Shown here in pieces: positions 4,384 to 64,000 of a stretch of DNA of 64,000 nt. How positions within the stretch are numbered: position 1 is the stretch's first letter; every line of letters begins with the position of its first letter. The DNA is from a virus. Both the position numbers and the translations under genes were made by a program. Location: the IMG/VR virus record IMGVR_UViG_3300036939_000021, positions 32,001 to 96,000 of that record; one strand, 5' to 3'. The notes under the pieces are model-generated. The model made no database searches. It was not told the DNA's origin and saw only the letters and a list, made by a program, of their open reading frames with translations.

Positions 4384-4620
4384 ACCGGAATAATATTTTA
4401 TTAAAAAATCTGCTTCAGTTTCGAGACACCAAAGCAGATAGTACAAACAAATTGTAACTGAGAGTGCTTTTAAATTTTAACAAAAAATCTTAAAAAATTT
4501 GTGTTTTTGTTATCACATCGAAGTATTTTTGAAAAATAATAAACTAACGTGTGGAAAACTATGTTGAATATGTGAATTATTCCAGTGATGAAATTATTAT
4601 ATAGAAATTTAAATATAGTC

Positions 4621-4687
4621 TTGACATATTAGATTTTTATAATTATAATAGAGGAGTCGGGAAAGAAAAGCTAAGGAAATCGAAAAA
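4621..4687 (+). promoter_or_regulatory. repeated early promoter/RBS module
   Basis: TTGACA-17nt-TATAAT-AGAGGAGTCGGGAAAGAAAAGCTAAGGAAATCGAAAAA-ATG. Confidence 0.9.
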
Positions 4688-4927
4688 ATGCTAAATAAAC
4701 CAGAATTGCTTGAGCATCTTAAGTCTTCTTTAGAAAAAGCTTCAAAAGCTACATCTAAAAAAGAATTAAGACAATATTTAAGCTTGGCTCGATCATATGC
4801 AGGAGCGCTCGATCATCCTTGTTCAGAAGAACTTCAAACTCAAATAAATTTTCTGGATAATTTCAAAGGACACTTACCAAAGATCCATCTAAAAAATATT
4901 CAGAATCTCTGCAAAACAATTCTCTAA
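4688..4927 (+). CDS. hypothetical protein (cassette cargo)
   Basis: ORF directly after the promoter module and followed by a terminator at 4961-4989. Confidence 0.75.
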   Translation: MLNKPELLEHLKSSLEKASKATSKKELRQYLSLARSYAGALDHPCSEELQTQINFLDNFKGHLPKIHLKNIQNLCKTIL

Positions 4928-4987
4928 TAAAACACTTTCGATTATTCCATGTCTTCTTTCTCTCCTCACCTTCGAGGAGATTTTTTT

Positions 4988-5263
4988 TTATCTAAGCGTT
5001 CCATCAAATATTCTTACAAAACCGCCATACTGTACAACTCGTACTACTACCTTTTTTGGTACAGAATTTAAACTCTGAAGACTTGCCACAGGTTTAAAAT
5101 CCCAATCGGAATTATGAGTACACAAATTTGTAAGAAATTCTAGAGATATAGAATTTTTTGTTGTGCGTTCTATCCAATAATAATTTTGTAAATAATTTAA
5201 ACCGTTAGGATCTGATTCTGATGATTGTGACATTTTCAACAAAATAAAATAATATGCTAACAC
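4988..5263 (-). CDS. hypothetical protein
   Basis: ORF track; start probably at MSQSS. Confidence 0.45.
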   Translation of the reverse strand: MLAYYFILLKMSQSSESDPNGLNYLQNYYWIERTTKNSISLEFLTNLCTHNSDWDFKPVASLQSLNSVPKKVVVRVVQYGGFVRIFDGTLR

Positions 5264-5302
5264 ATCTATTATAATTATTGTTGAAAAAATATTAGGGCAT
5301 CT

Positions 5303-5596
5303 ATGATCTATTTCGCGTATAAACCTGGTTTTGTAAAAATAGGATATTCAAAAGACCCAAGTAAACGTTTGAAACAATTGCAAACTGGATGCCCAGAACG
5401 ATTAAAGATTATTTGTAAAATACCGGGAGATAAGAAACTTGAACGAAAATTACAGAAATTATTTTGGCGTAATCTTTTAGATGATGAATGGTTTTATTTT
5501 ACAACGGGTTTAAAACTATATATAAAACGTCTCACGGAATCATCGAAATTTGTTGAGCCGAATTATATAGAACTTTTTTGTGTTCCAGATATTTAA
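5303..5596 (+). CDS. GIY-YIG nuclease family protein (T5orf172/MUG113-like)
   Basis: IYF...VKIGYSKDPSKRLKQLQTGCP...LERKLQ...EWF. Confidence 0.88.
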   Translation: MIYFAYKPGFVKIGYSKDPSKRLKQLQTGCPERLKIICKIPGDKKLERKLQKLFWRNLLDDEWFYFTTGLKLYIKRLTESSKFVEPNYIELFCVPDI

Positions 5597-5617
5597 AAAA
5601 TATTTTTAAAATATATC

Positions 5618-5682
5618 TTGACATCTTAGATTTTTATTATTAAAATAAAGGAGTAGGAAAGAAAAGCTAAGGAAAGCGAAAA
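5618..5682 (+). promoter_or_regulatory. repeated early promoter/RBS module
   Basis: TTGACATCTTAGATTTTTATTATTAAAAT...GCTAAGGAAA; 5597-5647 is identical to 6956-7006 (51 bp). Confidence 0.9.
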
Positions 5683-6135: not shown

Positions 6136-6194
6136 ACACTCTCGATTATTCCAGGGATGCATCTACTCTCTTACCCCATTCATCTTCTAAAATC

Positions 6195-6623: not shown

Positions 6624-6706
6624 TATCTAAAACATTCTCGATGATACTCTCCTCTCCTTAGAGGAGATTTTTTTTATAATAATATTGTTGAATTCTCAAA
6701 AAATTT

Positions 6707-7243: not shown

Positions 7244-7315
7244 AAGCTAACCTAGACCATAATAAAAAGCCCTCTAGAATCCTAGAGGGCTTTTTATTTT
7301 ACTTAAATTTTGATT

Positions 7316-27150: not shown

Positions 27151-28848
27151 ATGGTTATTCTATACAATAAACAAGGTATTTCGGTTGATGTTCCTGAAGG
27201 AGCGGTTGAACAGGCTTTAAATGAAGGTTTTACTAGAGATTTTCCTACTTTAGCTGTTTTAATAAAAAACTATAATCCTAATGTTAATCAGGATGAAATA
27301 CCTGTAGATATACAAGGAACGTTAAAACAAGTAGAATTTATTTTACAAAATCGTTCGGATACTGTTATTAATGTTCGTTATGGCGATACAGGTAGTGAAA
27401 CTAATATACCTGGAGGTGTACCTGCTAATGGTAAATTAAGATTTACTGCTTTTTCTGGTACAACACAAGTAAGTAGTTTACCTACGGTCTTAGTAACTTC
27501 TTCTGATTCTGATAATTTTGTAGAGTTAGAAAAATTTATTATATTTACAGCTACGCAACAAAAAAGTGGAACTATAACAAAAGTTGAGTTTTATTCTGGT
27601 GCAAGATTATTAGGTACTGTAGTATCAGCACCTTATACACTACAGCATACTTTTACAGCTACAGGAAAATATAAAATATACGCACGTTGTTATAGTGGTA
27701 CTGATTATACAACGAGTAATTTTTTAGATGTTTTTGCCATACCTAATAGAAGACAAGATCGAAATTTTACTCCTACCGTAACGCTAACAGCACCAAACAC
27801 CGGAATAATAAATCAAGCTGTTTTATTACAAGCGATTGCTACAGATTTAGATGGTACGGTTAATAAAGTTGAATTTTATTCTAATGATTTAAAAATAGGC
27901 GAAGATATAACAACACCATATTCTTTAAGTTATACTTTTGTTACTGGTGGAACTTATGTAGTAAAAGCAAGAGTTTATGATAATTTAGGTGCAACATCAG
28001 AATCTAATATTATACAGATTGTTATTTCAGCACCTTCTGTTCCTATTCCTACAATTTCTGTAACAGCACCAAGTACAGCTAATACAAATACCGCTCTTAC
28101 TTTAAATGCTACTGCAAGTATTACAGGAGATACGATAGCAGGTGTTCAATTTTTAGTAAATGGTATTAATCAAGGTAGTGCTGATACAACATCACCTTAT
28201 TCCATAAGTTGGACTCCTACCACACCGGGAAATTATACAATTACTGCTATTGCAACCGGAGTTTTAGGAGGTAGTGCTACAAGTGCAGGAGTAACGGTAA
28301 CGGTAACAACCCCAGCTGTACCAACTCCTACAATATCTATTGCTAATACAACACCAAAAGCAGGATTAATAAATGAAGTTTTTATAATAACCGCAACAGC
28401 AGCTTTAACAGGAGATACATTAACTTCTGTTCAATTTAGAGTTGATGGATCGAATATAGGAAGTCCGGATACAGTAGCACCTTATAGTTTAAGTCATACT
28501 TTTACAACAAAAGGTATTAAGCAATTATCAGCTATTGCTTTAGGTTCTCAAGGTGGAACAGCAACATCAGCTAACTACTCTATACAAATATTTGACTCAA
28601 AGGTCGTTGGTGGAGGTGCTGGTGCTGGTGGTGCTTCCTTAGGTGCTGATCCTGCCGATTTTATGTTATTTGACACTAATTTAGCTGGGGGCAATGCTTC
28701 AACTATGGCGATATTCGTAGGAGCAACACAAGTGGGGGCATTTAATTATGATGATACAAGTTATGCAGGTAAACCTTTTGCTTATTTTCATAATGCAACT
28801 AGCACTATGTACACAGGAACTATTCAACCTACTGTTAACTTTTCCTAA
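27151..28848 (+). CDS. multi-Ig-domain virion decoration protein
   Basis: Four Big_7-like repeats (V.FY/QF...G.D...PYS). Confidence 0.8.
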   Translation: MVILYNKQGISVDVPEGAVEQALNEGFTRDFPTLAVLIKNYNPNVNQDEIPVDIQGTLKQVEFILQNRSDTVINVRYGDTGSETNIPGGVPANGKLRFTAFSGTTQVSSLPTVLVTSSDSDNFVELEKFIIFTATQQKSGTITKVEFYSGARLLGTVVSAPYTLQHTFTATGKYKIYARCYSGTDYTTSNFLDVFAIPNRRQDRNFTPTVTLTAPNTGIINQAVLLQAIATDLDGTVNKVEFYSNDLKIGEDITTPYSLSYTFVTGGTYVVKARVYDNLGATSESNIIQIVISAPSVPIPTISVTAPSTANTNTALTLNATASITGDTIAGVQFLVNGINQGSADTTSPYSISWTPTTPGNYTITAIATGVLGGSATSAGVTVTVTTPAVPTPTISIANTTPKAGLINEVFIITATAALTGDTLTSVQFRVDGSNIGSPDTVAPYSLSHTFTTKGIKQLSAIALGSQGGTATSANYSIQIFDSKVVGGGAGAGGASLGADPADFMLFDTNLAGGNASTMAIFVGATQVGAFNYDDTSYAGKPFAYFHNATSTMYTGTIQPTVNFS

Positions 28849-29171
28849 TGGCAACTCTTACGGCTAACGCTCAAAGACTAGGAACTAATTATAAAAACGC
28901 TGCTTTTGTTTCTACTGGTAGTGTTTTTGCTGTAGGAACTACTACAGTTTTTATCAGAGAAGCTAACGGTACTTTAAGAAGTTGGCAAAATGGCAGAGCA
29001 TCTTTTTTGAATACCTTGCCTGGAACTAATAAAGATGAAATTCCAGCCTACACAGCTTTTCAAGTACTGCCAAGTCAGGAAATAATAACAGATGATAGTT
29101 TATTATCATTTGGAACCACCATTGCTACGGGTGGCGGCACGACTGTAAATGCTAACGGATTTATTCTCTAA
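28848..29171 (+). CDS. hypothetical virion protein
   Basis: Translationally coupled in the structural operon. Confidence 0.6.
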   Translation: MATLTANAQRLGTNYKNAAFVSTGSVFAVGTTTVFIREANGTLRSWQNGRASFLNTLPGTNKDEIPAYTAFQVLPSQEIITDDSLLSFGTTIATGGGTTVNANGFIL

Positions 29172-29173
29172 TC

Positions 29174-29902
29174 ATGACTCAAAATACTAGACCAGTTGAC
29201 GTTTCAGCAAATGGCAGCACTTCACAGGTTAATCTAATCGTAGATAGAAACGCATCAGGACACGAGGCAATGGGACGAGCGTTAGTTCACAACGAAAACC
29301 TGGTCAGTGCCGCAAATCCTTTGCCTATCACCAATGCAAGCTTGCCTAGTACATTAGGTGCTAAAATAGCTGCTCAAAGTTTTGCGGTAACTCTTTCTAC
29401 TGACGGTGCGTTTGCTACTGCTTTCGGTGCTGCGACTGACGCTGCGTCTGCAACAGATACGGGAAACACTGGATTTATATCGCTTTTTAAACGTTTGTTT
29501 TCCAAGCTCCCAGCTGCTTTGGTAAACAATAGATTTGCTGTAGATTCAGTTGTCCGTACTGCTGTAACAAATCCATTGCAATATGCCGCCATAGGTACTA
29601 GTGCAGGCGCAAATATTAAAAATACAACAGGCTCACTTTATTCGTTGTCTTGTTTGAATTCAAATGCAAGCACTCGCTATGTTCAGCTTTTTAATAAGAA
29701 TACTGCTCCAGTGGCTAGTGATATACCGTTAGAAAGTTTTGCTGTCTACGGAAATGATGGTCAATTAGTGCTAGGTCAAGACTATTTTACGTTGAATGGT
29801 ATTGATTTTTCTACTGGTATTAGTTGGGGAATATCAACTACGCGTAACTTATATACAGCAGCTACAGCAGCAGATACTATTTTTACAGCGAGGTATTTAT
29901 GA
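29174..29902 (+). CDS. putative fibre/virion protein
   Basis: AATD...GFISLFKRL helix plus C-terminal beta domain (RYVQLFNK...FSTGISW). Confidence 0.6.
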   Translation: MTQNTRPVDVSANGSTSQVNLIVDRNASGHEAMGRALVHNENLVSAANPLPITNASLPSTLGAKIAAQSFAVTLSTDGAFATAFGAATDAASATDTGNTGFISLFKRLFSKLPAALVNNRFAVDSVVRTAVTNPLQYAAIGTSAGANIKNTTGSLYSLSCLNSNASTRYVQLFNKNTAPVASDIPLESFAVYGNDGQLVLGQDYFTLNGIDFSTGISWGISTTRNLYTAATAADTIFTARYL

Positions 29903-30768
29903 GCGGTTCTTTCCCTCCTCCATCTCTTGATCCTGTTGCTTTAACTTACGCGGCTCCTGGAACTTTTACTCTGACGATTCCTGCAAATGCAAAGTTGTTG
30001 CGCTTGATTGCAATAGCTTCCGGTAGTGGCGGTGCTAGCGGTCGTAGAGGTGCAGCGGGTACAGCCAGATTCGGTGGTGGTTCCGGTGCTTCTGGAAACA
30101 CTTCTGACGTAACCTATTCAGTCTCCTCTTTGGAATCCAGGATTCTCACAATTACTGTTCCTGCTGGTGGTGTTGGAGGAGCTGCTGTAACAACAGATGA
30201 TACTAATGGTGCTAATAGCGTAGCTGGAAGTTCTGCTTTTGTGACTATACCTGAACGAACTCTAATAGCCGCCAGTGGTAACGGGTTAGCGTCTGGTGGT
30301 ACTAACGCCGCTGGTGCGGGTGCGAGTATGTTCGCAGCCACTCAGCCCGGTACATTTTCAGGAGTGGCAGGAGTTTCAGCAATTGTCAATGGTACATCTA
30401 CGACAGGGCTATCTAATGCAAACGGCGCTGCTTCTGGTGGTGCCGGGGGGGGGATCGATGCAAGTAATGTCGTCAGAGCTGGAGGAAACGGAGGACTAGG
30501 TGGAAGAACTAATGCTCGGTCGTTAGCCGATGCTGGCAGTGGTGGTGCGATAGATACACCTGGAACTTCAGCAGGTGTACGACAGCCCGGAAATCTCGGA
30601 GGTTCTGGTGGTGGTGGCGGTGGGGCAAGTATCACTGCTGCTGGCGGCAATGGCGGTGACGGAATACTAGGTGGTGGCGGTGGCGGTGGCGGTGCCTCTG
30701 CTAACGGATTCAATTCTGGTGCTGGCGGTAAGGGTGGAGACGGAGCTGTGTATATTTACTACTGGTAA
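29899..30768 (+). CDS. glycine-rich fibre protein
   Basis: GSGGASG...GGGGGGG...GGKGGDGAVYIYYW; high GC. Confidence 0.75.
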   Translation: MSGSFPPPSLDPVALTYAAPGTFTLTIPANAKLLRLIAIASGSGGASGRRGAAGTARFGGGSGASGNTSDVTYSVSSLESRILTITVPAGGVGGAAVTTDDTNGANSVAGSSAFVTIPERTLIAASGNGLASGGTNAAGAGASMFAATQPGTFSGVAGVSAIVNGTSTTGLSNANGAASGGAGGGIDASNVVRAGGNGGLGGRTNARSLADAGSGGAIDTPGTSAGVRQPGNLGGSGGGGGGASITAAGGNGGDGILGGGGGGGGASANGFNSGAGGKGGDGAVYIYYW

Positions 30769-30774
30769 CAAATT

Positions 30775-32697
30775 ATGAGTGGATCGTTTAGTTCGCCTTC
30801 AACAGCATCAGCAGGGTCTACTAACTTTAAACAACCGCAAACAGGAACTATTACTAGAACCCTGTCTGCGAAATTAGCTGAAAGCGTAAGTGTTAAAGAC
30901 TTCGGGGCTGTAGGCAATAATATTGCTGATGATACCGCAGCTATTCAAGCAGCTATTGATGCCGTTAAAAATACGGGAGTAAAACTTGTTATTCCCGCTG
31001 GAAACTACAAAATTACCGATACCATCAAGATTGGATACGGAAATAGCCAATATGTAGCTATCCATATTGAAGGTGCCGGACGGAATCAAGACTTTGGTAC
31101 GTGTCGATTTATTGCAACCTTCAATGATAGACCCGCAATTAATATCCAGGGAGCTAGAGGGGTAACACTTTCTGGAATATCTGTAAAAGGTGTAAATGTT
31201 GCCCCAGAGTCAAGAAGTGATTTTCTAACTAATCCTGACTATCTCGACTGGATAACGGCAGGTTGCACTTTTGGCACTTACAACCCTTATTGTGGGATTG
31301 CTATTGACGCTTACTCAGGTGCCGATCCTGGAGCAGGCATTGATTATCCTAACGATCCTTACGGACGTTTTCACACAAGTAGAGTAACTGTCAAAGAGGT
31401 TGAGGTTCGTAACTTTGTTGTAGGATATTGTGTCAAACCAGCGAATGACGACAACAACGCCGAGGATATTGCCTTTAGAGATTGTGTGGCAAAGGGATGT
31501 ACATTTGGTTTGACAACAGGAGGAAAACAAAACAAAGGAATTAGCTATACCGATGGAGCGATGATTAATTGCTTCTGTGCTTATTCTGGCTTGCGCTATG
31601 GCAAACAAAATGGTTCAATCCCCAGATTATTTAATTTAGATATTGTAGTATGCCATCGGATTCTAGAAGTTGCACATACTGTATACTCAGGTTCTATAAC
31701 AGGACTGTATTGTGAAAATATCTGTGAACTAGGGTATTTTGGAAGTGGTTATGCTAGCGCTAGCAATACTCTGTCTATAACAGGCTGTACATTCAACAGA
31801 ACAGAATACAATAGTGGGGTTTTCGCAGCTTTCTACATGAACGTAGCTTTTCATGGCTGTTCATTTCAAGCTGCCGATCCCGAAGGTGTAATCAACTTTT
31901 ATCTTGACCCTTTAAACGTATATATCGCTTTTAATAACTGTACTTTTGGTCACACTCAAGGAAACGCAAATACTAAGCGTGTTGTCTATTCCGGCACCAA
32001 TCAACTGAGTATGGCTCAAGGGTGCAAGATGATTTATGGCTCACAATTTCTTTGTGACAACACCTTGCGCTTATCAAGTATTCCGAATAGACAAATTATT
32101 TACGAAACTATTTGGGAACTAGTCACAAGGACAACTACAACCACAAATAGATATAAGATTACTCGTGGCTTCACTCCTACGGTATTTTTTGGAGATGCAC
32201 GAAGCATTTCTGCTGACAAAACAACTGTAACTATTACGGCAAGTAGCGGTAGCTTTCCCTCTTACATGATTGGCGATTTTATTCTTTGGAACATCAAAGT
32301 TAAAAGCCCTGTAGGGACTCTTGTTAACTGGTTGGCTCCAGCTTTTAAAGTATCTGCAATAGATACGGGGACACTTACCGTCACAGCAACTTGTTTTATT
32401 TTGCCTGCAAATATCAGCGACACAGTTCCTAGTAATACCGTGTTATATAGAGAAACGTTTTTTAATGCAACCCTTTCAACTGCGACTGTGACAGCTGGCA
32501 GCAATGTTCTTACGAGTGTTACTGGTTTAGCCACAAACTTTCAACCAGGAGACTGGATAAGGGGAACGGGTTTACCAGGCTCTACAAGAGTAGTCAGTGT
32601 TGATTCTTCAGCAGGAACACTGACTATGAATGTTAACGCTACAGCTAGCGGGACTGGAGTCACAATTGACAATTCTACAGTAACTTTAACTAATTAA
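30775..32697 (+). CDS. tailspike / pectate-lyase-like beta-helix depolymerase
   Basis: SVKDFGAVGN..DDTAAIQAAID...IPAGNYKIT. Confidence 0.82.
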   Translation: MSGSFSSPSTASAGSTNFKQPQTGTITRTLSAKLAESVSVKDFGAVGNNIADDTAAIQAAIDAVKNTGVKLVIPAGNYKITDTIKIGYGNSQYVAIHIEGAGRNQDFGTCRFIATFNDRPAINIQGARGVTLSGISVKGVNVAPESRSDFLTNPDYLDWITAGCTFGTYNPYCGIAIDAYSGADPGAGIDYPNDPYGRFHTSRVTVKEVEVRNFVVGYCVKPANDDNNAEDIAFRDCVAKGCTFGLTTGGKQNKGISYTDGAMINCFCAYSGLRYGKQNGSIPRLFNLDIVVCHRILEVAHTVYSGSITGLYCENICELGYFGSGYASASNTLSITGCTFNRTEYNSGVFAAFYMNVAFHGCSFQAADPEGVINFYLDPLNVYIAFNNCTFGHTQGNANTKRVVYSGTNQLSMAQGCKMIYGSQFLCDNTLRLSSIPNRQIIYETIWELVTRTTTTTNRYKITRGFTPTVFFGDARSISADKTTVTITASSGSFPSYMIGDFILWNIKVKSPVGTLVNWLAPAFKVSAIDTGTLTVTATCFILPANISDTVPSNTVLYRETFFNATLSTATVTAGSNVLTSVTGLATNFQPGDWIRGTGLPGSTRVVSVDSSAGTLTMNVNATASGTGVTIDNSTVTLTN

Positions 32698-32710
32698 AAA
32701 TATAGATCAA

Positions 32711-32911
32711 ATGGCATGATTAGCTAAATTTGATAATACCGAAAAAATATTATATTTTCGAGAAAGTTCTAATTTGCCTTGGAGAGTATATAACACAACA
32801 CCTTATGCAACTCTTGGTTATAAAATTTCAAAAGGTTCTAAAGGTTGGACAACATACCAAAAGCTAAAAAAACTTAATTGGAAATTAATAGCAACCGAAA
32901 AAATAGAATAA
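32711..32911 (+). pseudogene. small cyanobacterial-type conserved hypothetical gene with TGA at codon 3
   Basis: MA*LAKFD...LYFR...PWR.Y...GSKGWTTYQKL.K..WKLI. Confidence 0.5.
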
Positions 32912-32922
32912 GAAATTAAAAA

Positions 32923-33270
32923 TTATATTCCTGTATAATTCCGATGGGAATGTTCTAGTTTTAACGAAAGTTTCCAAATATCGGAAGCATCCCAACTCCA
33001 AGAACGCTCTATAACTTTATAGAGTCTAGCCTCAAACCAAAACGGTTTTCCGGCACGTTCTTTTAAAAAATTATCTATTGCTGTCTTGTCAGTAAAAGAT
33101 TTTATTGTTAGATTTAACGACCAATCATCATCTACTGTATTTATTGCTGTTAAATTTGAGCGTGTCTCAATACCTCCATTACGTCTAGAAGATTGCACAT
33201 CCAAGGAATAATTTTGAGAATCACCAAAGCTACGTTTTAGGGCTGTAGGTGCGAAAGGATAAGTAGACAT
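32923..33270 (-). CDS. minor tail (distal tail, gpM-like) protein
   Basis: GGIETR...INT..DDWSL...IDNFLKERAGKPFWF. Confidence 0.75.
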   Translation of the reverse strand: MSTYPFAPTALKRSFGDSQNYSLDVQSSRRNGGIETRSNLTAINTVDDDWSLNLTIKSFTDKTAIDNFLKERAGKPFWFEARLYKVIERSWSWDASDIWKLSLKLEHSHRNYTGI

Positions 33271-37098: not shown

Positions 37099-37649
37099 AA
37101 ATAGTACTTTGGGGTGTATTAGGAGAGTTAGTAGTACCAGAAATTGAAGCGGAAGTTTCTACAGTAAAAGAAGCGCTTCTATGTTTAGACGCTAACTATC
37201 CTCATTTCTTTCAAACAATTTTAGATTTATCAGCACAAGGATATCATTATCAAGTTGTACTTAGCGATGAAAATATTTGTTTAGAATTTGATGGCACTAA
37301 ACCAGAAGTTTATGCAAACTTTCAAATAGAAGGAAAAACTTTAACAATATCTCCAGTAATAGCTGGTGCTGGTGGATTAGGAAAGTTATTTATGGGTTTA
37401 GCATTAATTGGTATTGGAATTGCTACAGGAGGTACTGGATTTATTCTTGCTGGTATAGCAATGGGATTACAAAGTATCTTTAGTGGTAATCCTGATAAAC
37501 CTAAAGAAAATGATCCAGAGAGTTTAGTTGTTAGTGGTCAAACAAATACAACTTCTGAAGGTACAAGAATACCTATTATTATTGGAGAATATTTAGTAGG
37601 TGATATGGTATTGAGTGCTACATATAAGACGGAATATAAAGCGTTATAA
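37080..37649 (+). CDS. tail assembly protein gpI-like
   Basis: ISPVIAGAGG...NTTSEGTRIPIIIGE..VG. Confidence 0.88.
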   Translation: MSKKPVKIVLWGVLGELVVPEIEAEVSTVKEALLCLDANYPHFFQTILDLSAQGYHYQVVLSDENICLEFDGTKPEVYANFQIEGKTLTISPVIAGAGGLGKLFMGLALIGIGIATGGTGFILAGIAMGLQSIFSGNPDKPKENDPESLVVSGQTNTTSEGTRIPIIIGEYLVGDMVLSATYKTEYKAL

Positions 37650-37712
37650 AAATAAACCATAGAATTATTTATATAATTCTATGGTTTATTTTTAATATAA
37701 AAAACAAACTAG

Positions 37713-39515: not shown

Positions 39516-40043
39516 ATGGGTAAACTTTCTACTTTAAAAAGAAAAACTGCTGCAAAATGGGCAGAATCAAAACACGCTAGAAATCGATTAGGACAATTTG
39601 CTAGAAAAAATGCACCTGATTTAATTGTTAATACTGGTGGTACTGTTGGATCAATTATTGGAGGAAAGTTAGGAGGTGCTGTTGGTGCATATGCTGGCGA
39701 TTTAATTGGTGGATTAGTTACAAGACAAGTTGTAAATGTTTCTACTTCAGCTTTAAGTGCTAGACAAAAATTAAAAGCTAATGAAGTCTACCAAAAAGCG
39801 AAACGTTTACAAAAACTTAAGATGCTTGGAGCTGCAACAAAAAGTGAACTTAAAAATCGTACAGAACAATTAGGAGACGATATAACCGGAGATGTTACAG
39901 GATGGGCAATAGGTAATACAGCTGCTAATGTAGTAACAAATACTTTAGGTCGTAGTATTCCTTTAAGTGGTGCTGGTGTAGCAATGGCAACAGTTCCAAA
40001 ACTTGTAAAACTTAGACGAAAGATAGCAAATAGTACAAAATAG
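39516..40043 (+). CDS. putative virion-packaged glycine-zipper protein
   Basis: WAESKHARNRLGQF motif plus GxxxG hydrophobic helices. Confidence 0.55.
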   Translation: MGKLSTLKRKTAAKWAESKHARNRLGQFARKNAPDLIVNTGGTVGSIIGGKLGGAVGAYAGDLIGGLVTRQVVNVSTSALSARQKLKANEVYQKAKRLQKLKMLGAATKSELKNRTEQLGDDITGDVTGWAIGNTAANVVTNTLGRSIPLSGAGVAMATVPKLVKLRRKIANSTK

Positions 40044-40102
40044 AAAACCACTGGAATTATATAGATTATTCCAGTGGTTTTCTATTTTGTACTATTTGCT
40101 AT
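40023..40102. repeat. 35-bp perfect inverted repeat / bidirectional terminator with GGAAT..ATTCC core
   Basis: 40023-40057 is the exact reverse complement of 40068-40102. Confidence 0.85.
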
Positions 40103-40979: not shown

Positions 40980-41025
40980 AAAAAGAAACCTCGGAATAAT
41001 AAAGATTATTCCGAGGTTTCTTTTT
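40980..41025. terminator. hairpin with GGAATAAT-AAAG-ATTATTCC core
   Basis: 21-bp perfect arms with a T tail. Confidence 0.8.
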
Positions 41026-41356: not shown

Positions 41357-41406
41357 AAAAAATCAAACACCGGAATAAGTAATATTATTCCGGTGTTTGA
41401 TTTTTT
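41357..41406. terminator. hairpin with CACCGGAATAA/TTATTCCGGTG arms
   Basis: 22-bp perfect arms. Confidence 0.8.
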
Positions 41407-41896: not shown

Positions 41897-41955
41897 AGAT
41901 TGAGAAAAACAAAAAGAATCTCCTAAATAATGTATTATTTAGGAGATTCTTTTTG

Positions 41956-44900
41956 TTAAAAATAGCATATGTCTTTGATATATGTACAGCAATCTGATAT
42001 CCTTAAATTATTGACATTTGTTTTTAGAAGTGCTATACTTTCTACTGCTTCCAAATGCCAGAAACCAAAGTATTCAAATAGTTGCATACTATTAAAATTG
42101 AATATTGGTTGACCTCTACTGAAAGATCCTTCCATCAAACCTGAAGTAACAAAATTGCATTTAAGAAAATCGTAAGAAGCTTTTATTCCTCTTAAAGTTA
42201 CAGATGAATTTCTACCAGAGATATCAGCTATATTTGCATAAATAAACATTCTAAGAGCTATTGCAGCAAAATGAATAGTTCGATAATTACTTACTGGATC
42301 AATTTCAGCATAAAAGTCTGTTGGAGGTTGAAACTTTTTATTTCTTAAATAGTAACTACTTAACCAATTAATAAAGCCCATACTAATTTTTTTAGCTTGT
42401 GCTTTTAATTTTTCAAAATCAGTAGGTAGCGGAATATTAGTAGGAAATTCACCGATAGCCATTCTGTACCAAGCATGAGCTACACTTTCAGCTGGTCTAA
42501 TTTGATAACCTTCCCAATTTGTATTAGGGTCAACACCCTGAAAAGAGAAAAAGTCATATTGACCTTTTTCAAGTTGAAGTGAGTCCCAATACCCCCAGAC
42601 GTAGGTAGGAGCAAAAACACCATAAGTTTTATTTTTATTTTGTTGTCGATAAGCTTCTTGTGCGTCTTCTAAAAATTGTAAAACTTGTCGAAGTCGATCC
42701 CAATAACCCATTTTGACGTACCAACCCGGATATTGATAACCTGTTGCTGGCGCGCCTCTCCAACCTTCTACAGTTTGTCGAGTACCACTACCATCATCAA
42801 AAACATTTACAGTAAACGGAACAACACCGGGATTATAAGGAAGAATATCGCTAGGACTTCCTATAGGTTTAAAATCTCCTATCCATAGAGTATGAGCAAC
42901 TTTAAGACGGCTAACTATGACAGCTTTATAACTTTTAAGTGTTCCAAGTAATCTATAAGGTTCTTGACCTACCCAAAATATCCAAACTTGGCTAGCTGTT
43001 GGGCTAGCTACAAATTCAAAATTTGTAATAATATTTCCGCTGGGTGTTTTATTATCAAAATCTTTAAATTCGTTAGATTGAAAACTAGATTTTACCCAAT
43101 CAGTAGTCTGAATTGTTTTTCGATATTCTTTACCTGCAATCGTAAGTTTTATTATTGCAGTACCCTGTACTTTGTATTCCATCGTAAAAGGTAACGTTGG
43201 CAATCTTCCTAATAAATCTGGTGCAATACCTTTTGTTACTAAACCAGCACCAGCAAAATTACCATTAGCTGATAAGGTTATCTTAAAAACTTCATTTCTT
43301 ATTCCGTTTATTTCTGGATACTCCTTTACAATATTTGCTACACCATCATCACCTTTATAGGTGTAAATAGGATTATCAGCGATCCTAGTATGCCAGACAG
43401 TTTGTGCCTCATCCCATAAAATAAATTCATTTTTATTAAAATTTGCAATAGTTGTTACATTAGCAACTACAGGTAAATATCTTTTATAATATTGTGAAAA
43501 ATCAAAAGGATTGGGTTTAAGACTAATAATTAATTCTAATTCTGTTGTAATACTACAAGCTACTTCTACATATACTGTAGTATCGTCATCAAGTGTCGCA
43601 GTAACAGCATAGTTAGAAAATTCAATACTTGGATATTGAGCGGTAGAAGTTGGTATAACAACTTGTAAAAAATCTTTTTTATCTCCAGATATTACTCTGG
43701 AATTATTAACAATTCGATCATTTTTTGGAACTATTACAATTTGAGAACCCGGATAAGCAAAAGGATTTAATACATCATCTTTTTTATACCAATGTGTTAA
43801 ATTTATGACTTCTGCTGAGATTGCCTCTGTATATTTATTACAGTTATAGGCTACTGCCCAAATAGGATTAGTAGGCTCTATTTGAGTCATACTCTCATAA
43901 GCATCAGATGCCCAGGGGAAAACATCAATAGCACCAAGAGCTTCTATAGGTCTTAAAAGTCTCCACATCGGATAAGCTTCAAAACCTGTATTAGCGGGTA
44001 CTACAGCACCAACATATGCAGCATAAACAACTTTAGCAGTACCAGTATAATTAGTTTTTAATTTTATTATTCCAGGGTTTTCGTTTGTTTGTGTAGGTGC
44101 TTTTCCTCCAGGTTGTGAAGATTCTGGATAATATCGAACTATTACACCTTCTAATAAAATATTGCTAGTCCAATATTCGATATCCCACCAAAATCCTCCT
44201 AGCGGTTCAGCATAAACATTTTGCCAAAGTAATTGATCTGTTTCTGGATAAACTCGATAGACATCACTAAGCAATTCTCCAAAATTAGGAGAACCATTAG
44301 GAATAGTAGTAATCCCATTATTAAAATTTAGTATTAAATCAAAAAAGCCATAGTTTAAAGGATCGCTTGAAACTTTACCTTTAGTAACAAAAGATTCTGT
44401 TGTTATCAACCAATGAGGTACTCTAATACCTTTGTCGGGTGTCCAATTGGATTCTATTTTTAATGGATAAAAATAATTTAATAACGCATTACCACAAGCA
44501 ATTGCTAAATTTTTATATCGGACATCTCCCGTAACTTGGAAAGCATAAGCACAAGCTCTAGTAATAACAGCTTGTGCCTCTGTAGGAGCGCCAGAACTAG
44601 GAAAATATCCACCACGACCTAAAACCTTGTGGAAACTATTTCTAAGTACATATTGAGCATTAAGAATATATGGATAATCAGCTTTTTGCCATCTTAACAA
44701 CCAACTAATAGCACCATTTAAATGCAAATCTAAATTTGTATCATTAACCGATTCTTGTAATTTTGCTAGAGTTTCTTCTTTAGTTTTTGTTATATCGTAA
44801 TCCTCAGCAGCTTGTTTAAGAGCTGATTTTCTAAAAGGTTGATAGCTTCTTTTAAAACTTAAATCTATTTGCCAAAAATAGGGAGCAATGTAAGTATTAC

Positions 44901-55323: not shown

Positions 55324-55383
55324 AGCAAAAAGAAACATACACCGGAATCATAAAGATTATTCCGGTGTATGTTTCTTTTTGCT
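55324..55383. terminator. hairpin with GGAATCAT-AAAG-ATTATTCC core
   Basis: 25-bp perfect outer arms. Confidence 0.8.
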
Positions 55384-57075: not shown

Positions 57076-57435
57076 TTATTTTCTTAAAACATCTCGAATA
57101 GTACCAAGTATATCTGAGATACTGTAAGGCTTAGTAATATAACGATCAGCACCTAATTTAAAACCTATTTTTTGATCTACATAACGAACGTGAGCAGAAA
57201 CAAAAATAAAAGGTGTTTTTGGATATAATTCTTTTGCTTCAGTTATTACGTTATATCCTGTAATACCTGGCATCGTTATATCACAAAGTATTAAATCAAA
57301 TTCTTTTTTTCTTATTACATCAATTGCATCACGTCCACCAGATACAGATACTACCTCGTATCCCTCCATTTTTAAAAGTTCTTCTAAAGCAAACCTATTA
57401 CCCTCGTCATCTTCAACAACTAAAATTACACACAT
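57076..57435 (-). CDS. single-domain response regulator receiver
   Basis: ILVVEDD...DLILCDITMPG..G...FIFVSA...GADRYITKPY. Confidence 0.92.
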   Translation of the reverse strand: MCVILVVEDDEGNRFALEELLKMEGYEVVSVSGGRDAIDVIRKKEFDLILCDITMPGITGYNVITEAKELYPKTPFIFVSAHVRYVDQKIGFKLGADRYITKPYSISDILGTIRDVLRK

Positions 57436-57784: not shown

Positions 57785-59884
57785 TTACCAGTTAACACCA
57801 GACCAATTATGTTTTACTATCATTTGTTCCCAAGTCTCTTCAGGTTCATAATCTGGTATGTAATACTGCATTTCTTCAGTTATTACATCAACGGCTATAG
57901 GTGCTATCTCAGGTAATAATTCTTTTCTAATCTCTAACATCAAAGAATCATGAGAAAAATTTACAAGATGTGCATTATCTATTCCCCAAGTAAACTGACA
58001 TAACTCATCTATTATTCCAAGTGAGTTTTTCATAACCGTTGCTTCAGGTCGTAACCATTGACAAGAAACAACATCAGAAATTTTTAATTTATATTTTGTT
58101 TGTCCATACCAGTTTTCTTGTGCTTGCGCTCTATGCCAAATAAGACCTCCATCTAATGTTTCAGAATATCCGAATACTCCTAAACAATCTTGATTACCTG
58201 TTAGTTTATTATCAATATAAATAGTTTCTAGAGTATTCTGAGCTTTAGCGTAAATGCCATCCTGGAATAATCGCAAATCTTCGTAAGCTTCAGCACAAGC
58301 TTCTAAATAATTTTTACAATCTTCAAGACTTACAGAAAGTTCATAACCATAAAAAGATTGTTGAAGCCTAGCACCTCCAGAATAGTTTAAGAAAGAGTAA
58401 ATTACAGTTTTAGCTAATTTATAAAGATGTTTATAGTGAGATTGTTTATTTGAAGGTTTTTCTACTAATTCCTTTGCCTCTAACGGTGTTACCGTTAAAT
58501 CTTCAAACTTAAGCATTGCGGCTAAAGTAATGTAATGTAATTTAATTCCCTCTTTTTTTGCTTTCTGAAGATTTTTATCATTACTAAGAATACGTGCAAA
58601 CTGTAAATGACTTGCTGCTAAATCTATTTCTAAAAGTTGATAACCAGGTCTAGCTGATACTATAGAACGTACTGGTGGAAGATTTTGCGATTGATGACTT
58701 GGAAGATGTTTACTAAAATTTTGAGTGTTATGTAAATGCTTATCTCTTTTAGAGCCACTGGAACTTCTTCCCATTCCTTGAGTAGCAAGAATAGAAAACG
58801 TAGTTTGAATACATTTTCTATTTCTATCTAAAGTATCTATATAACCTTTAATTGTTGATGCTGCACGATTTATACCACGAAAATTAATAAGTTCTCTTAT
58901 CTCATAATCATCAGGAAATTTCTCTGTAATAATATAGAGATTTTCCTTACCACTAGATTCTTTCCATTCTTTAGTTTTAGTATCAAATTTTAAAAGCATA
59001 TCCTCACCAAATTTATTACGAATGTAATATCTAATCTGATCAGGACTGTTAGGGTTAAATACAGAGGGCTTAGGTATCTTTATTGGTTGACCTTTTTTAC
59101 CTAAAATAGGATTCTTCCAATATTCTTGTATTTTCTCTCGTTGACATGGATTTTCTGGTAATAATTTCTCTAATTTTTCTTTTAAATATTGAGCAGCTTG
59201 TTGATAACCTTCTAATACAAATTCAGCTTTTCTAATATCTCCTACAGGTAAACCCTGATGAATAAGTTCTATAAAAGCAGGTATGCAAGACATCTCTGCT
59301 TCTAATACTTCTTTTTGTGATATTACTAATTCTTTATACTGAGCATCACCTATTTTATATGTTACTATTGCATCTTTACCCGCATACATAAACTGTTCAT
59401 CTGATAATTCCAGTTGTGACCAGTCACTCTTCTGATATTGTTTATCATGAATATATCCATATTCTTCGCACAAATACTCTAAACTATTAGAATTTTGTAT
59501 CCCTAGCTCATATACATAACCATCATATCTTCCAGCTTTTAGAATTTGAGACATTAATCTAGTGTCTCTAATATTTCTAATTTTTATGTTATATTTTGCC
59601 CTAAACCATAAGGCGTCAAATACAGCATTCTGAATATACTTAACAACTTTAGGATTATCAAGAACTTGTAATAATTTTTGAAACCATATTTCTTGTTCTT
59701 CGGTCATAAACCACAAATCTATTATGGCTACTTGCGCTATTTTTGGTAAATATATTTGCACCAATCTTAAGTCATCTACATAAGCATTTAATCCCGTTGT
59801 TTCAGTATCTAATGCTAATTCTGGAGTATCGAGAATACTAAGATTAGACCAATCTTGGAATAATATAACTTTAAGTTCTTTCAT
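57785..59884 (-). CDS. polA: family A DNA polymerase with 3'-5' exonuclease
   Basis: LDTETTG, NAVFD, YAGKD; GRSSS, IDLAASH, AKTVIY, SHDS. Confidence 0.9.
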   Translation of the reverse strand: MKELKVILFQDWSNLSILDTPELALDTETTGLNAYVDDLRLVQIYLPKIAQVAIIDLWFMTEEQEIWFQKLLQVLDNPKVVKYIQNAVFDALWFRAKYNIKIRNIRDTRLMSQILKAGRYDGYVYELGIQNSNSLEYLCEEYGYIHDKQYQKSDWSQLELSDEQFMYAGKDAIVTYKIGDAQYKELVISQKEVLEAEMSCIPAFIELIHQGLPVGDIRKAEFVLEGYQQAAQYLKEKLEKLLPENPCQREKIQEYWKNPILGKKGQPIKIPKPSVFNPNSPDQIRYYIRNKFGEDMLLKFDTKTKEWKESSGKENLYIITEKFPDDYEIRELINFRGINRAASTIKGYIDTLDRNRKCIQTTFSILATQGMGRSSSGSKRDKHLHNTQNFSKHLPSHQSQNLPPVRSIVSARPGYQLLEIDLAASHLQFARILSNDKNLQKAKKEGIKLHYITLAAMLKFEDLTVTPLEAKELVEKPSNKQSHYKHLYKLAKTVIYSFLNYSGGARLQQSFYGYELSVSLEDCKNYLEACAEAYEDLRLFQDGIYAKAQNTLETIYIDNKLTGNQDCLGVFGYSETLDGGLIWHRAQAQENWYGQTKYKLKISDVVSCQWLRPEATVMKNSLGIIDELCQFTWGIDNAHLVNFSHDSLMLEIRKELLPEIAPIAVDVITEEMQYYIPDYEPEETWEQMIVKHNWSGVNW

Positions 59885-59956
59885 TACTTTTATTAGTAAA
59901 ATAGGGTAAAAACAACAGAATCATAAATATAATATTTATGATTCTGTTGTGAGTTT

Positions 59957-60227: not shown

Positions 60228-61670
60228 TCAACCTAAATACATCTCTATTGTTTGCTCATTTAATCCCAAAACTTTAAGAGCTTTTTGTTTCGTATTCACT
60301 CCTATTTTTTTATGCTCAATAATACGTTTTACCTTTTTTTGGTGAAGCATATTTGTTGATTCCATAATTCTTTTAATATATTGCCAGTCGTCTAGTTCCT
60401 CTTTATACTCTACTAATTCTCCGTCTACTTCTATTGGTGCTTCTCTTTTTTCTCGTTTTTCTGGAATAATTAACCACTCATTTAAAGTTCCACATTCACA
60501 TAATTTTTTATAGCCTTCTTCTCCTTTCATTACTACAACATTTTTAAAAACTAAAGGTAAACCACATCCAGAACATTTAAGCTTTTCTGGACTTCCTTTA
60601 GTTGTTATATCAGGGAATAATGAGTATTCTCGTTGAAATCTAGGACTACCATGAAAATGAGCATTTCCAGCATGATCTAATATTGTTAGCCTCTTACCAT
60701 TAGGCTTTGGTCTTAGACCTCTACCCCATATCTGAGTAAGCAATCCAGGACTACCCACAAAGCGCTGTAAGCTCAAGCAAGACACCAATGGAATATCGAT
60801 ACCCTCGGTAATTAGAGAGACATTTACAAGTCCTGTAAGCTCACCATAAAGATATGATTCCAGTGTGTCTCTTCTTTGTGTAGCTGTAAGAGTACTGCCG
60901 ATATATGCAAACTTATATTTACCATCAAAATAAGTATTAAATTTTTCTACAATAGCGTAGCAATGCTCAGTGGTTGTTGCATATACTAATGTTTTTTCTC
61001 CTAATGCAAATCGTTCCCACTCTTTACAAGCATCTGCTATCAACTCGCCTCTATTGAAGTGTAAATCTTGTTCGACTAAATCATCTTTAGAACTCTTAGC
61101 TTTGTAATCTGTTTTCCAAGATTTCAAATAATAATCAGCTAAATATCCTTGATCTATAAACCAACCAATATCATTATTTTCATAAGAATTTATATAATCA
61201 TAATAATGTCCTAAAGGTTGTCCGTCAGTACGCTCTGGAGTAGCTGTATAACCAATATGCCAAGCATTAGGAAAATATTTAAGAATTTTTGAATAGGTGT
61301 TAGATGGTGATCGATGAATCTCATCACCTATAACAATGTCATACTCTGGAATAACATCAAGACGGTTAGCAATACTTTTATAAACACCAATACTAATTTT
61401 ATTAAAAGTATTTTCTTTACCCATACCTAATCGGCTAACAAAAGGTTTTAAATAAGGTTTAGGTGAAGTAATACGTGCATATAGGTCTTCTACAAGCTCC
61501 CCCATAGGCACAACTATCAAAACACTTAAACCTTTTTTATAGGCATCCCATACATTTTTTGTTATTAAAGTTCCTTTTCCTGTACCAGTTGGTAGTAGTT
61601 GTAAAACTTTTTTACCTTGTAGTTCCCAAAGTTTTGTATCTATTGCAATTTGATAATCTCTAAGCTTCAT
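60228..61670 (-). CDS. SF2 DEAD/DEAH helicase with Zn ribbon
   Basis: PTGTGK, DEIH, TATPER.DG, EGIDIP, Q..GRGLRP, LDHAGN...HG. Confidence 0.92.
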   Translation of the reverse strand: MKLRDYQIAIDTKLWELQGKKVLQLLPTGTGKGTLITKNVWDAYKKGLSVLIVVPMGELVEDLYARITSPKPYLKPFVSRLGMGKENTFNKISIGVYKSIANRLDVIPEYDIVIGDEIHRSPSNTYSKILKYFPNAWHIGYTATPERTDGQPLGHYYDYINSYENNDIGWFIDQGYLADYYLKSWKTDYKAKSSKDDLVEQDLHFNRGELIADACKEWERFALGEKTLVYATTTEHCYAIVEKFNTYFDGKYKFAYIGSTLTATQRRDTLESYLYGELTGLVNVSLITEGIDIPLVSCLSLQRFVGSPGLLTQIWGRGLRPKPNGKRLTILDHAGNAHFHGSPRFQREYSLFPDITTKGSPEKLKCSGCGLPLVFKNVVVMKGEEGYKKLCECGTLNEWLIIPEKREKREAPIEVDGELVEYKEELDDWQYIKRIMESTNMLHQKKVKRIIEHKKIGVNTKQKALKVLGLNEQTIEMYLG

Positions 61671-61818
61671 CTGGAATAATATAGAAACCTATATCTACTA
61701 TATGCCATATTTTAATAGATGTCAATATTACAAAAAAAAAATAACCGCTAGTTTGCTCAAGACTAACGGTTAATAGTAGAGATTCAGTTAAAACTATTCA
61801 AATTTTCAACTATTTCTA

Positions 61819-62952
61819 TTAAAACACAAAATACTCCATATTCTTTTGTTCCTCAAGCAATCGTTGATATTTAGCAGGTAATCCGCTAGTGAAAACTTGA
61901 TGTTCCGGCATTTTATTACCCTTAGCATTTGGAGCAGAAATATAAAGATACCAAGGTTTTAAAGGTGTTGGAGGTTTATCTTTAACTAAATTTGTAGTTG
62001 CAATACTGCCAAGACTGCCACGATCTCCACATTGAATACTTCCAACAGTGTTTAAAGGAATATCATCGCTATCCATACCAAGATAAGCTTTTACTGGTAC
62101 TCCAGGCATATCACTAAGAGAGACTCCAAAAGTTGCCTGGAAGAATTTACCTGTTCCATCTTTTTTCTCGATTTTTCCTGTTTTAATTACCGAAGTAATA
62201 GGAATAATAACCCCTCGTTTAGGAAAAGTACCTTCTTTCATCATGTTTTCAAAAATTGTTTGAATTTTTGCACTAGCTGATATTCCAGAAGATATATTGA
62301 GTTTTAGATCTTTCCAAGCTTCTTGCCGTTCATCTTCATTTAAAGATGTTAAATCATCCCAAGTAGATTTAAAATTACCGTAATCAAAATCAGGTGTTAC
62401 TGAAATCCCTATTTGAAAACTAAGTTTATTAGTTTTCCTTTCTGGATGAGCAATAATAGCTAAAGGAATTCGATAACTTGTATTATCATTTCTTTTAAGT
62501 TCTATAGAATCTAAACCCAAACCATTAATTATAGTTCCTTCAAACGTTAAACGATTTTCAAAAACTTTCAAAGGAAAAAATTGATAATCTTCTACATTCC
62601 CTTTATCATCACCAATTACTAATCCGACTACATCATCAATCTTTTTAATTGTTGGTGCTTTTACATATTTGGGCGTATCTCCCAAATATGTAACAGAAAT
62701 AAATTTTTGAGCAACAGGTAATTCTGTATACTCTTTACCAAAAAGCGCAAGTAAAAGACCATGTACGTTATCAGCAACACTATATAGATCGCCTTCATAA
62801 GTCATATCAAGATTTTCAAGATCTTCAAGACTCACAAAGATATTAGTACGTTCATTATCTTGAGGATCAAAATCTTCCCCCATTTTTTGATATAAAAGAG
62901 AAGCATTAAACAGAGGAGCAAAGTAATTAGCAGTTAAATTGACTAAAGGCAT
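61819..62952 (-). CDS. hypothetical replication-module protein
   Basis: True start likely MPLVNL (62952), since 62953-63020 is a promoter module. Confidence 0.6.
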   Translation of the reverse strand: MPLVNLTANYFAPLFNASLLYQKMGEDFDPQDNERTNIFVSLEDLENLDMTYEGDLYSVADNVHGLLLALFGKEYTELPVAQKFISVTYLGDTPKYVKAPTIKKIDDVVGLVIGDDKGNVEDYQFFPLKVFENRLTFEGTIINGLGLDSIELKRNDNTSYRIPLAIIAHPERKTNKLSFQIGISVTPDFDYGNFKSTWDDLTSLNEDERQEAWKDLKLNISSGISASAKIQTIFENMMKEGTFPKRGVIIPITSVIKTGKIEKKDGTGKFFQATFGVSLSDMPGVPVKAYLGMDSDDIPLNTVGSIQCGDRGSLGSIATTNLVKDKPPTPLKPWYLYISAPNAKGNKMPEHQVFTSGLPAKYQRLLEEQKNMEYFVF

Positions 62953-63020
62953 TTTTCTATTTCCGTTAAGTGGTTTTTCCTCGACTCCTATATAGTAGCT
63001 ATAAAAATCTAAGATGTCAA
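62953..63020 (-). promoter_or_regulatory. repeated early promoter module
   Basis: Reverse complement TTGACATCTTAGATTTTTATAGCTACTATATAGGAGTCG. Confidence 0.85.
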
Positions 63021-63091
63021 GAGTATATAGCAAAAATCTTTAGAAAATAATTTCTAAAGATTTTTAAAGTTGTTTTAATTTTTTAATAAAA

Positions 63092-63544
63092 TTAAGTTTC
63101 ATCCTCATCTACTAAATTTTCTTTTAACCATTCTTCATATAGCCAAGCAGTTAAAGAAACAAGAGAATGATGAGTTTTATTCATCTTTTCTTTCAATTTT
63201 TGGGTAATCGCTTCAGGTTGCCTAATCGCTACCACAGGGCAATTAGTAGGTAACATAACTTTAGGTAGTGAATTCACTTGTTCATATTCACCATCAAGAT
63301 ATCTATCAAACAGATATCTTGTTAAAGCGTTAAAATTCTTCAAGTACGATAATACAATACCTGCTTCCTTCAATCCTCTTCTCGTTTTATCCATCTTAGT
63401 TTTAACCCTAAGTATCAGTTCCTCAGAAACCCTTATAGTTAATTGAGGGTGTAAATTCTTGCCACTACTCCTAACCCTTTTGACAGGCTTAACCCTATAT
63501 GGGGAGTTTTCCAATTTTTTTAATGTTTCTTCTCGAATAAGCAT
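63092..63544 (-). CDS. tandem ribbon-helix-helix regulator
   Basis: LTIRVSEELILRVK and VAIRQPEAITQKLK. Confidence 0.55.
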   Translation of the reverse strand: MLIREETLKKLENSPYRVKPVKRVRSSGKNLHPQLTIRVSEELILRVKTKMDKTRRGLKEAGIVLSYLKNFNALTRYLFDRYLDGEYEQVNSLPKVMLPTNCPVVAIRQPEAITQKLKEKMNKTHHSLVSLTAWLYEEWLKENLVDEDET

Positions 63545-63688
63545 ATTTTTAGGTTTTACGTGATAGTTTAACGTATAGTGATTTTTCTATATGTTAAACC
63601 ATATATTTTGCAATGTCAACAAAAATCTTGTTTGACAGAACCTTCTTTTTTGTTATATGCTGTAAGCATCTTTTATCCTTTTAAGCCT

Positions 63689-64000
63689 GTGAACAATATT
63701 TATTATTCCGATGTTTCCTCTGTGTCTGTTAGACACTCATTAGGTTTAGATGCCGTTTTAGGGAATGAAGGATGTATTAGTCTTTTTTGGAAAATAATTA
63801 AAGATGAAGAGACTAATACACAAACTAATAAAATTATTTATCAAATAAATTTAGGTAGTCGTAGTAGTGCTACAAATCCTAAACCCGTAAGCACTCTAAT
63901 TAATGCCAAATCTTGGGGTAAAAAATACCCTAAAAATGGAAATACTTACGATGGTATTACTTGGGTAACGGTTGAAAGCTCTATAGAAAAATTTACCCAA
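63689..64000 (+). CDS. partial ORF (possibly primase), runs off window end
   Basis: Open frame from GTG 63689 after TTGACA 63632; divergent from the replication block. Confidence 0.45.
   Translation, partial: MNNIYYSDVSSVSVRHSLGLDAVLGNEGCISLFWKIIKDEETNTQTNKIIYQINLGSRSSATNPKPVSTLINAKSWGKKYPKNGNTYDGITWVTVESSIEKFTQ

Follow-up and report, generated by a model that had tools for sequence, protein, structure and literature searches.

What is the function of a short DNA word that a virus repeats roughly every kilobase, in genes and between them and on either strand of its genome? The question is raised by the octamers GGAATAAT and GGAATCAT, jointly GGAATMAT, in a 64,000-nucleotide stretch of DNA (the window) that comprises bases 32001-96000 of one 105,884-bp virus record, IMGVR_UViG_3300036939_000021. 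The genome has a GC content of 32.6%. It is that of a large siphovirus-type phage, an assignment based on its genes for a 2099-residue tape-measure protein, tail proteins, a T4-type large terminase, DNA polymerase A (polA), helicases and a primase-helicase. A search of a phage collection gave no cultured relative, and Rfam and tRNA scans of the window identified no RNA genes. The analysis described below shows that GGAATMAT is a real, strongly selected iterated DNA word that is private to the virus lineage, because a distant relative has it too and no sampled bacterium does. That this selected word is read by a factor encoded by the phage itself we consider likely; that the factor is the phage primase-helicase is a tentative proposal.

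Abundance and distribution of the word

The window contains 47 copies of GGAATAAT (28 on the plus strand, 19 on the minus strand), compared with a mean of 4.55 (standard deviation 1.9, maximum 9) in 100 dinucleotide shuffles of the same DNA. The over-representation claimed by a sequence-only reading of the window is thus confirmed, and every position named in that reading carries the word. Genome-wide, GGAATAAT and GGAATCAT rank first and second among octamers, with 77 copies against 10.2 and 38 copies against 4.4 expected from an order-3 Markov model. The 115 GGAATMAT sites correspond to about one per 0.92 kb, or about one per 1.8 kb per strand. A scan of all one-substitution variants shows that A or C at position 6 yields an approximately tenfold enrichment and T a 2.9-fold enrichment, the remaining variants all being enriched 2.3-fold or less and most of them near onefold. 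The mildly enriched GGAATTAT (22 copies, 7.5 expected) carries the same 5' flank as the other copies of the word.

The enrichment persists when codon usage is controlled for, the point on which the sequence-only reading had made its claim depend. Coding sequence contains 70 GGAATMAT sites, both strands counted, against 16.2 ± 3.4 when synonymous codons are shuffled within each gene and 8.5 ± 3.0 when codon order is shuffled; an extended 12-mer is observed 16 times in the coding shuffle test, with 0.33 expected. The other 45 of the 115 sites are located in intergenic DNA, which makes up only 15% of the genome. Among the coding copies, 34 lie on the strand of the gene and 36 are antisense, and together they fill every frame that avoids a TAA stop within the word. 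The commonest readings are Gly-Ile-Ile (15 copies) and Ile-Ile-Pro (12 copies), the two that had been noticed from the sequence, and the other allowed frames are used as well. Because the copies occupy all of these frames on both strands and survive codon-preserving shuffles, the word acts at the DNA level.

The spacing of the sites is Poisson-like, with a coefficient of variation of 0.91 and about one site per kb. No strand polarity is present in any 10-kb bin, and the orientation of the sites is unbiased with respect to the genome ends and to GC skew. The largest motif-free gap coincides with a block of tail-fibre genes (Table 1), which has a GC content of 42.7% (genome, 32.6%), lacks the word entirely and was probably acquired recently. 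Other large gaps contain a TnpB gene, also a probable recent arrival, or the terminase gene together with that of an HNH endonuclease. From these coincidences, recently acquired DNA seems to be devoid of the word.

Architecture of the full element

Conservation extends upstream of the octamer. Coding and intergenic copies share a 5' flank with the preferred sequence C-A-C-Y, and 93% of sites have a pyrimidine at position -1. G is nearly excluded at exactly seven flank positions (1-6 G per position among the 115 sites), and at position -8 its frequency is normal or above normal (27 G). The segment from -7 to -1 is free of G in 92 of the 115 sites, compared with 31% upstream of any GGA, and the ACAC, CC and CT prefixes recorded by the sequence-only reading are real parts of this segment. 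Downstream of the word there is no conservation across the 115 sites. The full element therefore spans 15 nucleotides: seven G-free letters that end in CAC-Y, followed by GGAAT[A/C]AT. A promoter recognized by a phage sigma factor, with a -35 element of the GGAAT type, was considered and rejected, since the sites bear no strand relation to genes and no -10 element is conserved downstream.

Word pairs in terminator palindromes

Ten pairs of words lie no more than 30 nucleotides apart, and all of them are arranged as word-N2-4-complement; the reverse arrangement never occurs. The ten pairs cap palindromes whose long stems comprise an A-run and a T-run, and several of them are perfect over 21-35 bp. 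The palindromes begin 18-32 nucleotides past stop codons, and a consensus scan identifies them as terminators on both strands. A GC-containing stem, a T-run and a location just past a stop codon, which define an intrinsic bidirectional terminator, are seen in the hairpin subset of the sites only. The longest stem listed in Table 1, at 40023..40102, has GGAATTAT / ATTATTCC at its apex, i.e. GGAATAAT on the minus strand at 40065. The palindrome at 55324..55383 has a C/T mismatch exactly at degenerate position 6. Four of the ten pairs have A on one arm and C on the other at the degenerate position, hence a mismatch in a near-perfect stem, which indicates that each arm is kept as a word and not as a pairing partner. 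The genome contains 22 perfect palindromes with a stem of at least 12 bp. About half of them have no exact word, some carrying near-variants at the apex, so long palindromes serve this phage widely as terminators, and the presence of the word in them is optional.

It is very unlikely that the word is nothing more than an apical motif in hairpins that function in termination or RNA processing, the coding copies being remnants or chance occurrences. About half of the intergenic copies are located in strong hairpins, and the distance of the palindromes from the stop codons and their U-runs agree with this explanation. It is nonetheless largely refuted by the 70 coding copies, which are no more folded than random coding sites (-10.03 versus -10.02 kcal/mol, p 0.88), are split evenly between sense and antisense, and occur inside conserved genes such as polA. 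The mismatched pairs, in which the word is retained at the expense of pairing, and the long palindromes without the word also argue against it.

Mobile-element hairpins were rejected as well. An origin as REP/PATE or IS200/IS605 end hairpins does not agree with coding copies that are not hairpins, with the lack of any detected Y1 transposase and with the location of both TnpB genes in motif-free gaps. This lytic-looking phage has two TnpB genes, one of which is bracketed by word hairpins at genome positions 7345 and 9291; the other is not flanked in this way, and there is no systematic link between the word and TnpB/IS605 ends.

The word in related phages

Pattern scans of IMG/VR with the hairpin form of the word returned mostly single chance matches and one enriched contig, L069 (9.3 kb, 41.6% GC). 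Its polA is 52% identical to that of the phage and its neighboring SF2 helicase 42% identical. L069 contains ten copies of GGAATCAT and one of GGAATAAT, against 0.5 expected, together with eight copies of HIP1, the iterated octamer of cyanobacteria, and one terminator palindrome of the same design as those of the phage. When the polA and SF2 helicase orthologs are aligned, not a single copy is found at a shared position. Since the copies are at non-orthologous positions, the word is conserved and its positions turn over; it is kept for density, not for position. L069 also has a gene for a C39-like peptidase (4857-5216), located beside polA with an adjoining word hairpin, and in this phage the C39-like peptidase gene (L175:9333-9920) lies near a TnpB gene and is flanked by word hairpins. 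This gene is possibly a mobile cassette.

Proteins of closer relatives are 70-76% (polA) and 60-70% (primase) identical to those of the phage. Contigs L169-L172 (polA identity 47%) lack the word and are rich in HIP1 (12-34 copies), which places the wider polA group among cyanophage-like viruses; this phage has no HIP1 copy. Contigs that have only the SF2 helicase in common with the phage (23-30% identity) contain different dispersed words, which likewise use both strands and all frames. In IMG/VR contigs L211, L216, L221, L224 and L215 these words occur at about 0.5-1.3 per kb. GCCCACA(A) is dispersed in four of the helicase-sharing contigs, with GC contents of 31-57%, and TG-R-CCACA(A) in L211, often as the palindrome TTGTGGCCACAA. 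Two further candidates, GGGGTTAC in L169 and L172 and CAACCTGG in L209, were rejected as dispersed words because they form local tandem arrays. The GGGGTTAC arrays of these HIP1-rich relatives are iteron-like, occur on both strands (L172:4063-4165 and L169:815-939) and possibly mark a replication origin.

A word that persists while its positions turn over, and that builds up in resident DNA and not in DNA that is probably recent, could also be a functionless by-product of a drive by biased repair or gene conversion, an origin that has been proposed for HIP1 together with its methyltransferases. The D12 adenine methyltransferase and the HNH nucleases encoded by the phage are compatible with this explanation, which we regard as unlikely: the substitution scan revealed no consistent depletion of one-step precursors of the word, albeit with small counts, no Vsr-like or C5-methyltransferase gene was detected, and the word is non-palindromic and contains no known methyltransferase site.

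Search for the word in bacterial genomes

A scan for the hairpin form across GTDB, with one genome per species and 185,579 species, yielded 51 scattered single matches, against about 44 estimated by chance, and no systematic excess of the word in the stretches retrieved around these matches. In 401 sampled cyanobacterial genomes the 12-mer is present in at most 12 copies in any genome, which is near chance. As evidence that the word does not come from the host, these scans of sampled bacteria are strong but not final. Together with the copies in the divergent L069, these scans bear out the earlier proposal of a phage-specific, highly iterated signal.

The same scans weigh against a signal that is defined by the host, such as an uptake sequence or a host Chi site, and copied by the phage. 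The anatomy of the element resembles that of uptake sequences, and the host-type HIP1 is found in phages with a more distant polA; however, neither the cyanobacterial nor the GTDB counts exceed chance appreciably, and L069 keeps the word at 41.6% GC alongside HIP1. We consider a host origin highly improbable.

Comparison with known iterated words

The uptake sequences of Pasteurellaceae (USS) and Neisseriaceae (DUS) share with the phage word an asymmetric core with a weaker flank, a frequency of about one per kb, equal use of the strands and of all reading frames, and intergenic inverted pairs that act as terminators. USS and DUS reside in naturally competent bacteria that have an uptake receptor, whereas the phage word is found in a virus and in none of the bacterial genomes sampled, with no uptake machinery involved. 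HIP1 and the alternate HIPs of cyanobacteria (PMC4390886, PMC5861425) provide a second comparison. HIP1, like the phage word, is an octamer enriched about tenfold or more, present inside genes and of unknown or debated function, and it occurs in the related phages L169-L172. The HIPs, however, are GC-rich palindromes with methyltransferase sites, found in host genomes, while GGAATMAT is asymmetric, has 25-38% GC and a G-free flank, and is not enriched in the 401 cyanobacterial genomes; the only methyltransferase encoded by the phage is of the D12 type, with no known site in the word. Chi and KOPS/SRS are likewise sharp 8-mers over-represented genome-wide, but they are strand-skewed and host-encoded. 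The phage word is balanced between the strands in every 10-kb bin and between sense and antisense in genes. The anatomy is therefore closest to USS/DUS and HIP1, yet the word belongs to neither. The analogy with HIP1 and Chi drawn by the sequence-only reading stands for anatomy and fails for membership, since the word is AT-rich, asymmetric, without strand polarity and absent from the sampled hosts. A literature search for the word itself found nothing relevant, and no description of a virus-private asymmetric word with a defined flank was found in the literature searched.

The resemblance to Chi bears on a further explanation, in which the word is a hotspot of recombination or repair, or a nuclease attenuator, that responds to a phage or host helicase-nuclease and may promote the exchange of cassettes between related phages. 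An 8-mer of sharp specificity would suit such a role, and the phage encodes a Dda/RecD-like SF1 helicase beside the SF2 helicase. Moreover, the C39-like peptidase cassette is in a different context in L069, with word hairpins beside both copies, and a link between the word and rearrangement breakpoints, which had been raised as a check on the signal, is suggested by this single cassette. It is the only rearrangement in support, and the lack of orientation bias with respect to genome ends or GC skew and of enrichment in sampled host genomes also make a Chi-like function improbable.

A proposed priming model

The data demand a process that reads DNA and neither RNA nor protein, is indifferent to the direction of genes, needs many sites but no particular ones and is set by the phage lineage. 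Among ordinary phage processes, lagging-strand priming alone has all of these needs. Recognition of the word by the primase, or by any particular protein, is an inference; we propose tentatively that the word is the preferred start site of the AEP primase-helicase whose gene starts at the end of the window. The 15-nucleotide element would mark preferred starts of lagging-strand priming. The primase-helicase would recognize the uncopied 8-mer on the single-stranded template and begin the primer with a purine opposite the pyrimidine at -1, the start being deduced from the predominance of pyrimidine there. Copying of the seven G-free template letters would produce a primer without C. An intergenic inverted pair at the tip of a terminator palindrome would provide a site on each strand from one palindrome, and synthesis would diverge outward, because the 8-mers face the center in all ten close pairs.

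Several properties of the element and the enzyme are consistent with the priming model. The AEP primases prefer the template 3'-G-Y-C/Y-5', in which the G is uncopied (PMC10345425). The junction of the phage element, 5'-C-Y-G-3', equals this preference, with the pyrimidine at -1 followed by the invariant GG. The sites occur on both strands regardless of transcription, with random-like spacing at about one per 1.8 kb per strand, and the sharp specificity of the word is as expected of a dedicated recognition domain. The turnover of positions relative to L069, the gaps at probably recent DNA and the other dispersed words in phages with the neighboring SF2 helicase also count in its favor. The C-terminal half of the 978-residue primase-helicase is D5-type or D5-like. 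The N-terminal domain has an invariant DLD motif, and its predicted fold (model pLDDT 65) best matches AEP Prim-Pols (6zp9, E 4.8e-4; RepB', 3h25), among them the cyanophage S-2L PrimPol and RepB', so that assignment of the N-terminus to the AEP Prim-Pol fold is supported at the level of a predicted model.

RepB' of RSF1010 offers a precedent: this AEP primase is specific for both sequence and hairpin, and its sites are paired between opposite strands. Its sites ssiA and ssiB, the T7 primase site 5'-GTC-3' and the AEP preference all resemble the phage word, as interpreted in this model, in that a pyrimidine start lies beside an uncopied 3' element, and primases need sites at kilobase intervals on both strands. 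T7 primers, which use A and C only, recall the restricted composition of the putative copied stretch. Unlike these sites, the putative uncopied element of the word is 8 nucleotides long; to our knowledge a recognition element of this length, much longer than in any characterized replicative primase, is without precedent.

Among the nicking, priming, recombination and DNA-organizing proteins that the sequence-only reading had put forward as readers, priming is the function for which support was obtained, all of it circumstantial. Other observations also weigh against the priming model. The N-terminal structure model is modest and was built from seven sequences. The sites have neither strand polarity nor regular spacing, and, were the palindrome hairpin to form in single-stranded DNA, pairing would involve the proposed start base. 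In the dispersed words of distant relatives the layout is different, the body being conserved and the putatively uncopied part short. The short contigs of relatives showed no primase gene, nor was one found among the ten largest proteins in the 21 kb of L211 examined. Finally, the G-free flank and the pyrimidine at -1 could equally fit the contacts of a protein bound to duplex DNA.

This last point leads to the possibility that the word is recognized as duplex DNA by a phage protein that marks or organizes the DNA as 'self', in nucleoid organization, in protection from a phage or host nuclease, or in global regulation. The word is sharp, orientation-free, dense, evenly spread and missing from probably recent DNA, and the phage encodes many DNA-binding proteins. 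Candidate readers are two ParB-like proteins, proteins with KilA-N, Bro-N and T5orf172 domains, an RFX-like winged helix and a membrane FtsK-like ATPase. The spacing of the paired arms, however, is either 2 or 4 nucleotides, a poor fit to a dimeric operator, and a sharp-edged block of seven letters that accepts anything but G is unusual as a protein contact. Only the ATPase core of the FtsK-like protein was detected, with no gamma-type reader domain seen and a PDB sequence match of E 0.3. A duplex tag is accordingly a possible but rather doubtful reading of the word.

Other features of the genome

The phage carries a gene set that is unusual for a phage: a sigma-70-family factor, a receiver domain, a D12 methyltransferase, an FtsK-like protein and ParB-like proteins. 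One ParB-like protein is encoded two genes away from a PAPS-reductase-like protein. Further DNA-related proteins are those with KilA-N, Bro-N, T5orf172 and RFX-like winged-helix domains, and HNH nucleases.

A second iterated element is a conserved promoter cassette that consists of CTTGACATCT, a 17-nucleotide spacer, TAAAAT or CATAAT, and then AGAGGAGT. Its TTGACATC occurs 30 times genome-wide, with 3.8 expected. The cassette probably marks early promoters recognized by a host sigma factor and provided with a strong ribosome-binding site.

Table 1 Features of the phage genome. Coordinates refer to the window unless prefixed by L175 or L176.
Feature	Coordinates	Strand	Remarks
Dispersed word copies	4387..63709	both	47 GGAATAAT, 18 GGAATCAT, 15 GGAATTAT in the window
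Largest motif-free gap, 5.4 kb	27810..33204 (gap bounds 27802 and 33205)		Tail-fibre block of 42.7% GC with Big_7, PKD and pectate-lyase-like domains
DNA polymerase A gene	57785..59884	-	Three GGAATAAT and one GGAATTAT; none at the positions of copies in the L069 ortholog
SF2 helicase gene, replication module	60228..61670	-	Three word copies; positions not conserved with L069
AEP primase-helicase gene (978 residues), start	63578..64000	+	Continues beyond the window; candidate word reader
Palindrome, 35-bp stem, perfect	40023..40102		Between convergent genes; fold -51.5 kcal/mol
Palindrome, 21-bp stem	40980..41025		Apex GGAATAAT-AAAG-ATTATTCC; A-run and T-run flanks; terminator-like on both strands
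Palindrome, 22-bp stem	41357..41406		Word on minus strand (41384); terminator-like on both strands
Palindrome, 25-bp stem	55324..55383		Apex GGAATCAT-AAAG-ATTATTCC; 29 nt past stop codon
Long perfect terminator palindromes	41908-41957, 37647-37694, 59912-59950		Near-variant apex (TAAATAAT, AGAATTAT, AGAATCAT)
TnpB gene (OrfB_IS605 and Cas12f TNB)	2156..3487	-	Inside second-largest motif-free gap
Second TnpB gene (OrfB_IS605 and Cas12f-like TNB)	L175:7897-9141	+	Word-free stretch
Sigma-70-family factor (regions 2 and 4)	629-1324	-	
Stand-alone receiver domain	57076-57435	-	
D12 adenine methyltransferase	L176:6615-7445		
Membrane FtsK/SpoIIIE-like ATPase	L175:18273-19883		
ParB-like proteins (two)	L175:5870-6844; L176:16653-17636		
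Promoter cassettes	5618, 6977, 10932, 41051, 41447	+	
Promoter cassettes	12820, 40410, 52926, 60224, 61718, 63013	-	

Implications

HIP1, USS/DUS and Chi are examples of highly iterated words from the genomes of cells. The present word is maintained by selection in a phage lineage whose members differ widely in GC content. Should it be the signal at which the phage primase starts, it would show that a virus can encode its own private replication code of considerable length. As a 'self' tag or recombination signal, it would instead indicate a hitherto unknown protein that reads DNA. A stronger form of the priming model, in which the AEP primase-helicase starts lagging-strand primers only at the 15-nucleotide signal and the genome must carry this signal at kilobase density, is a doubtful possibility. 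Such an obligatory priming code would restrict replication to the DNA of the phage itself and the word and the enzyme would co-evolve, with related phages using other private words (GCCCACAA, TGRCCACAA). In practice, the word is useful for telling apart resident and recently acquired DNA in these phages and as an aid in assigning fragmentary metagenomic contigs to the lineage.

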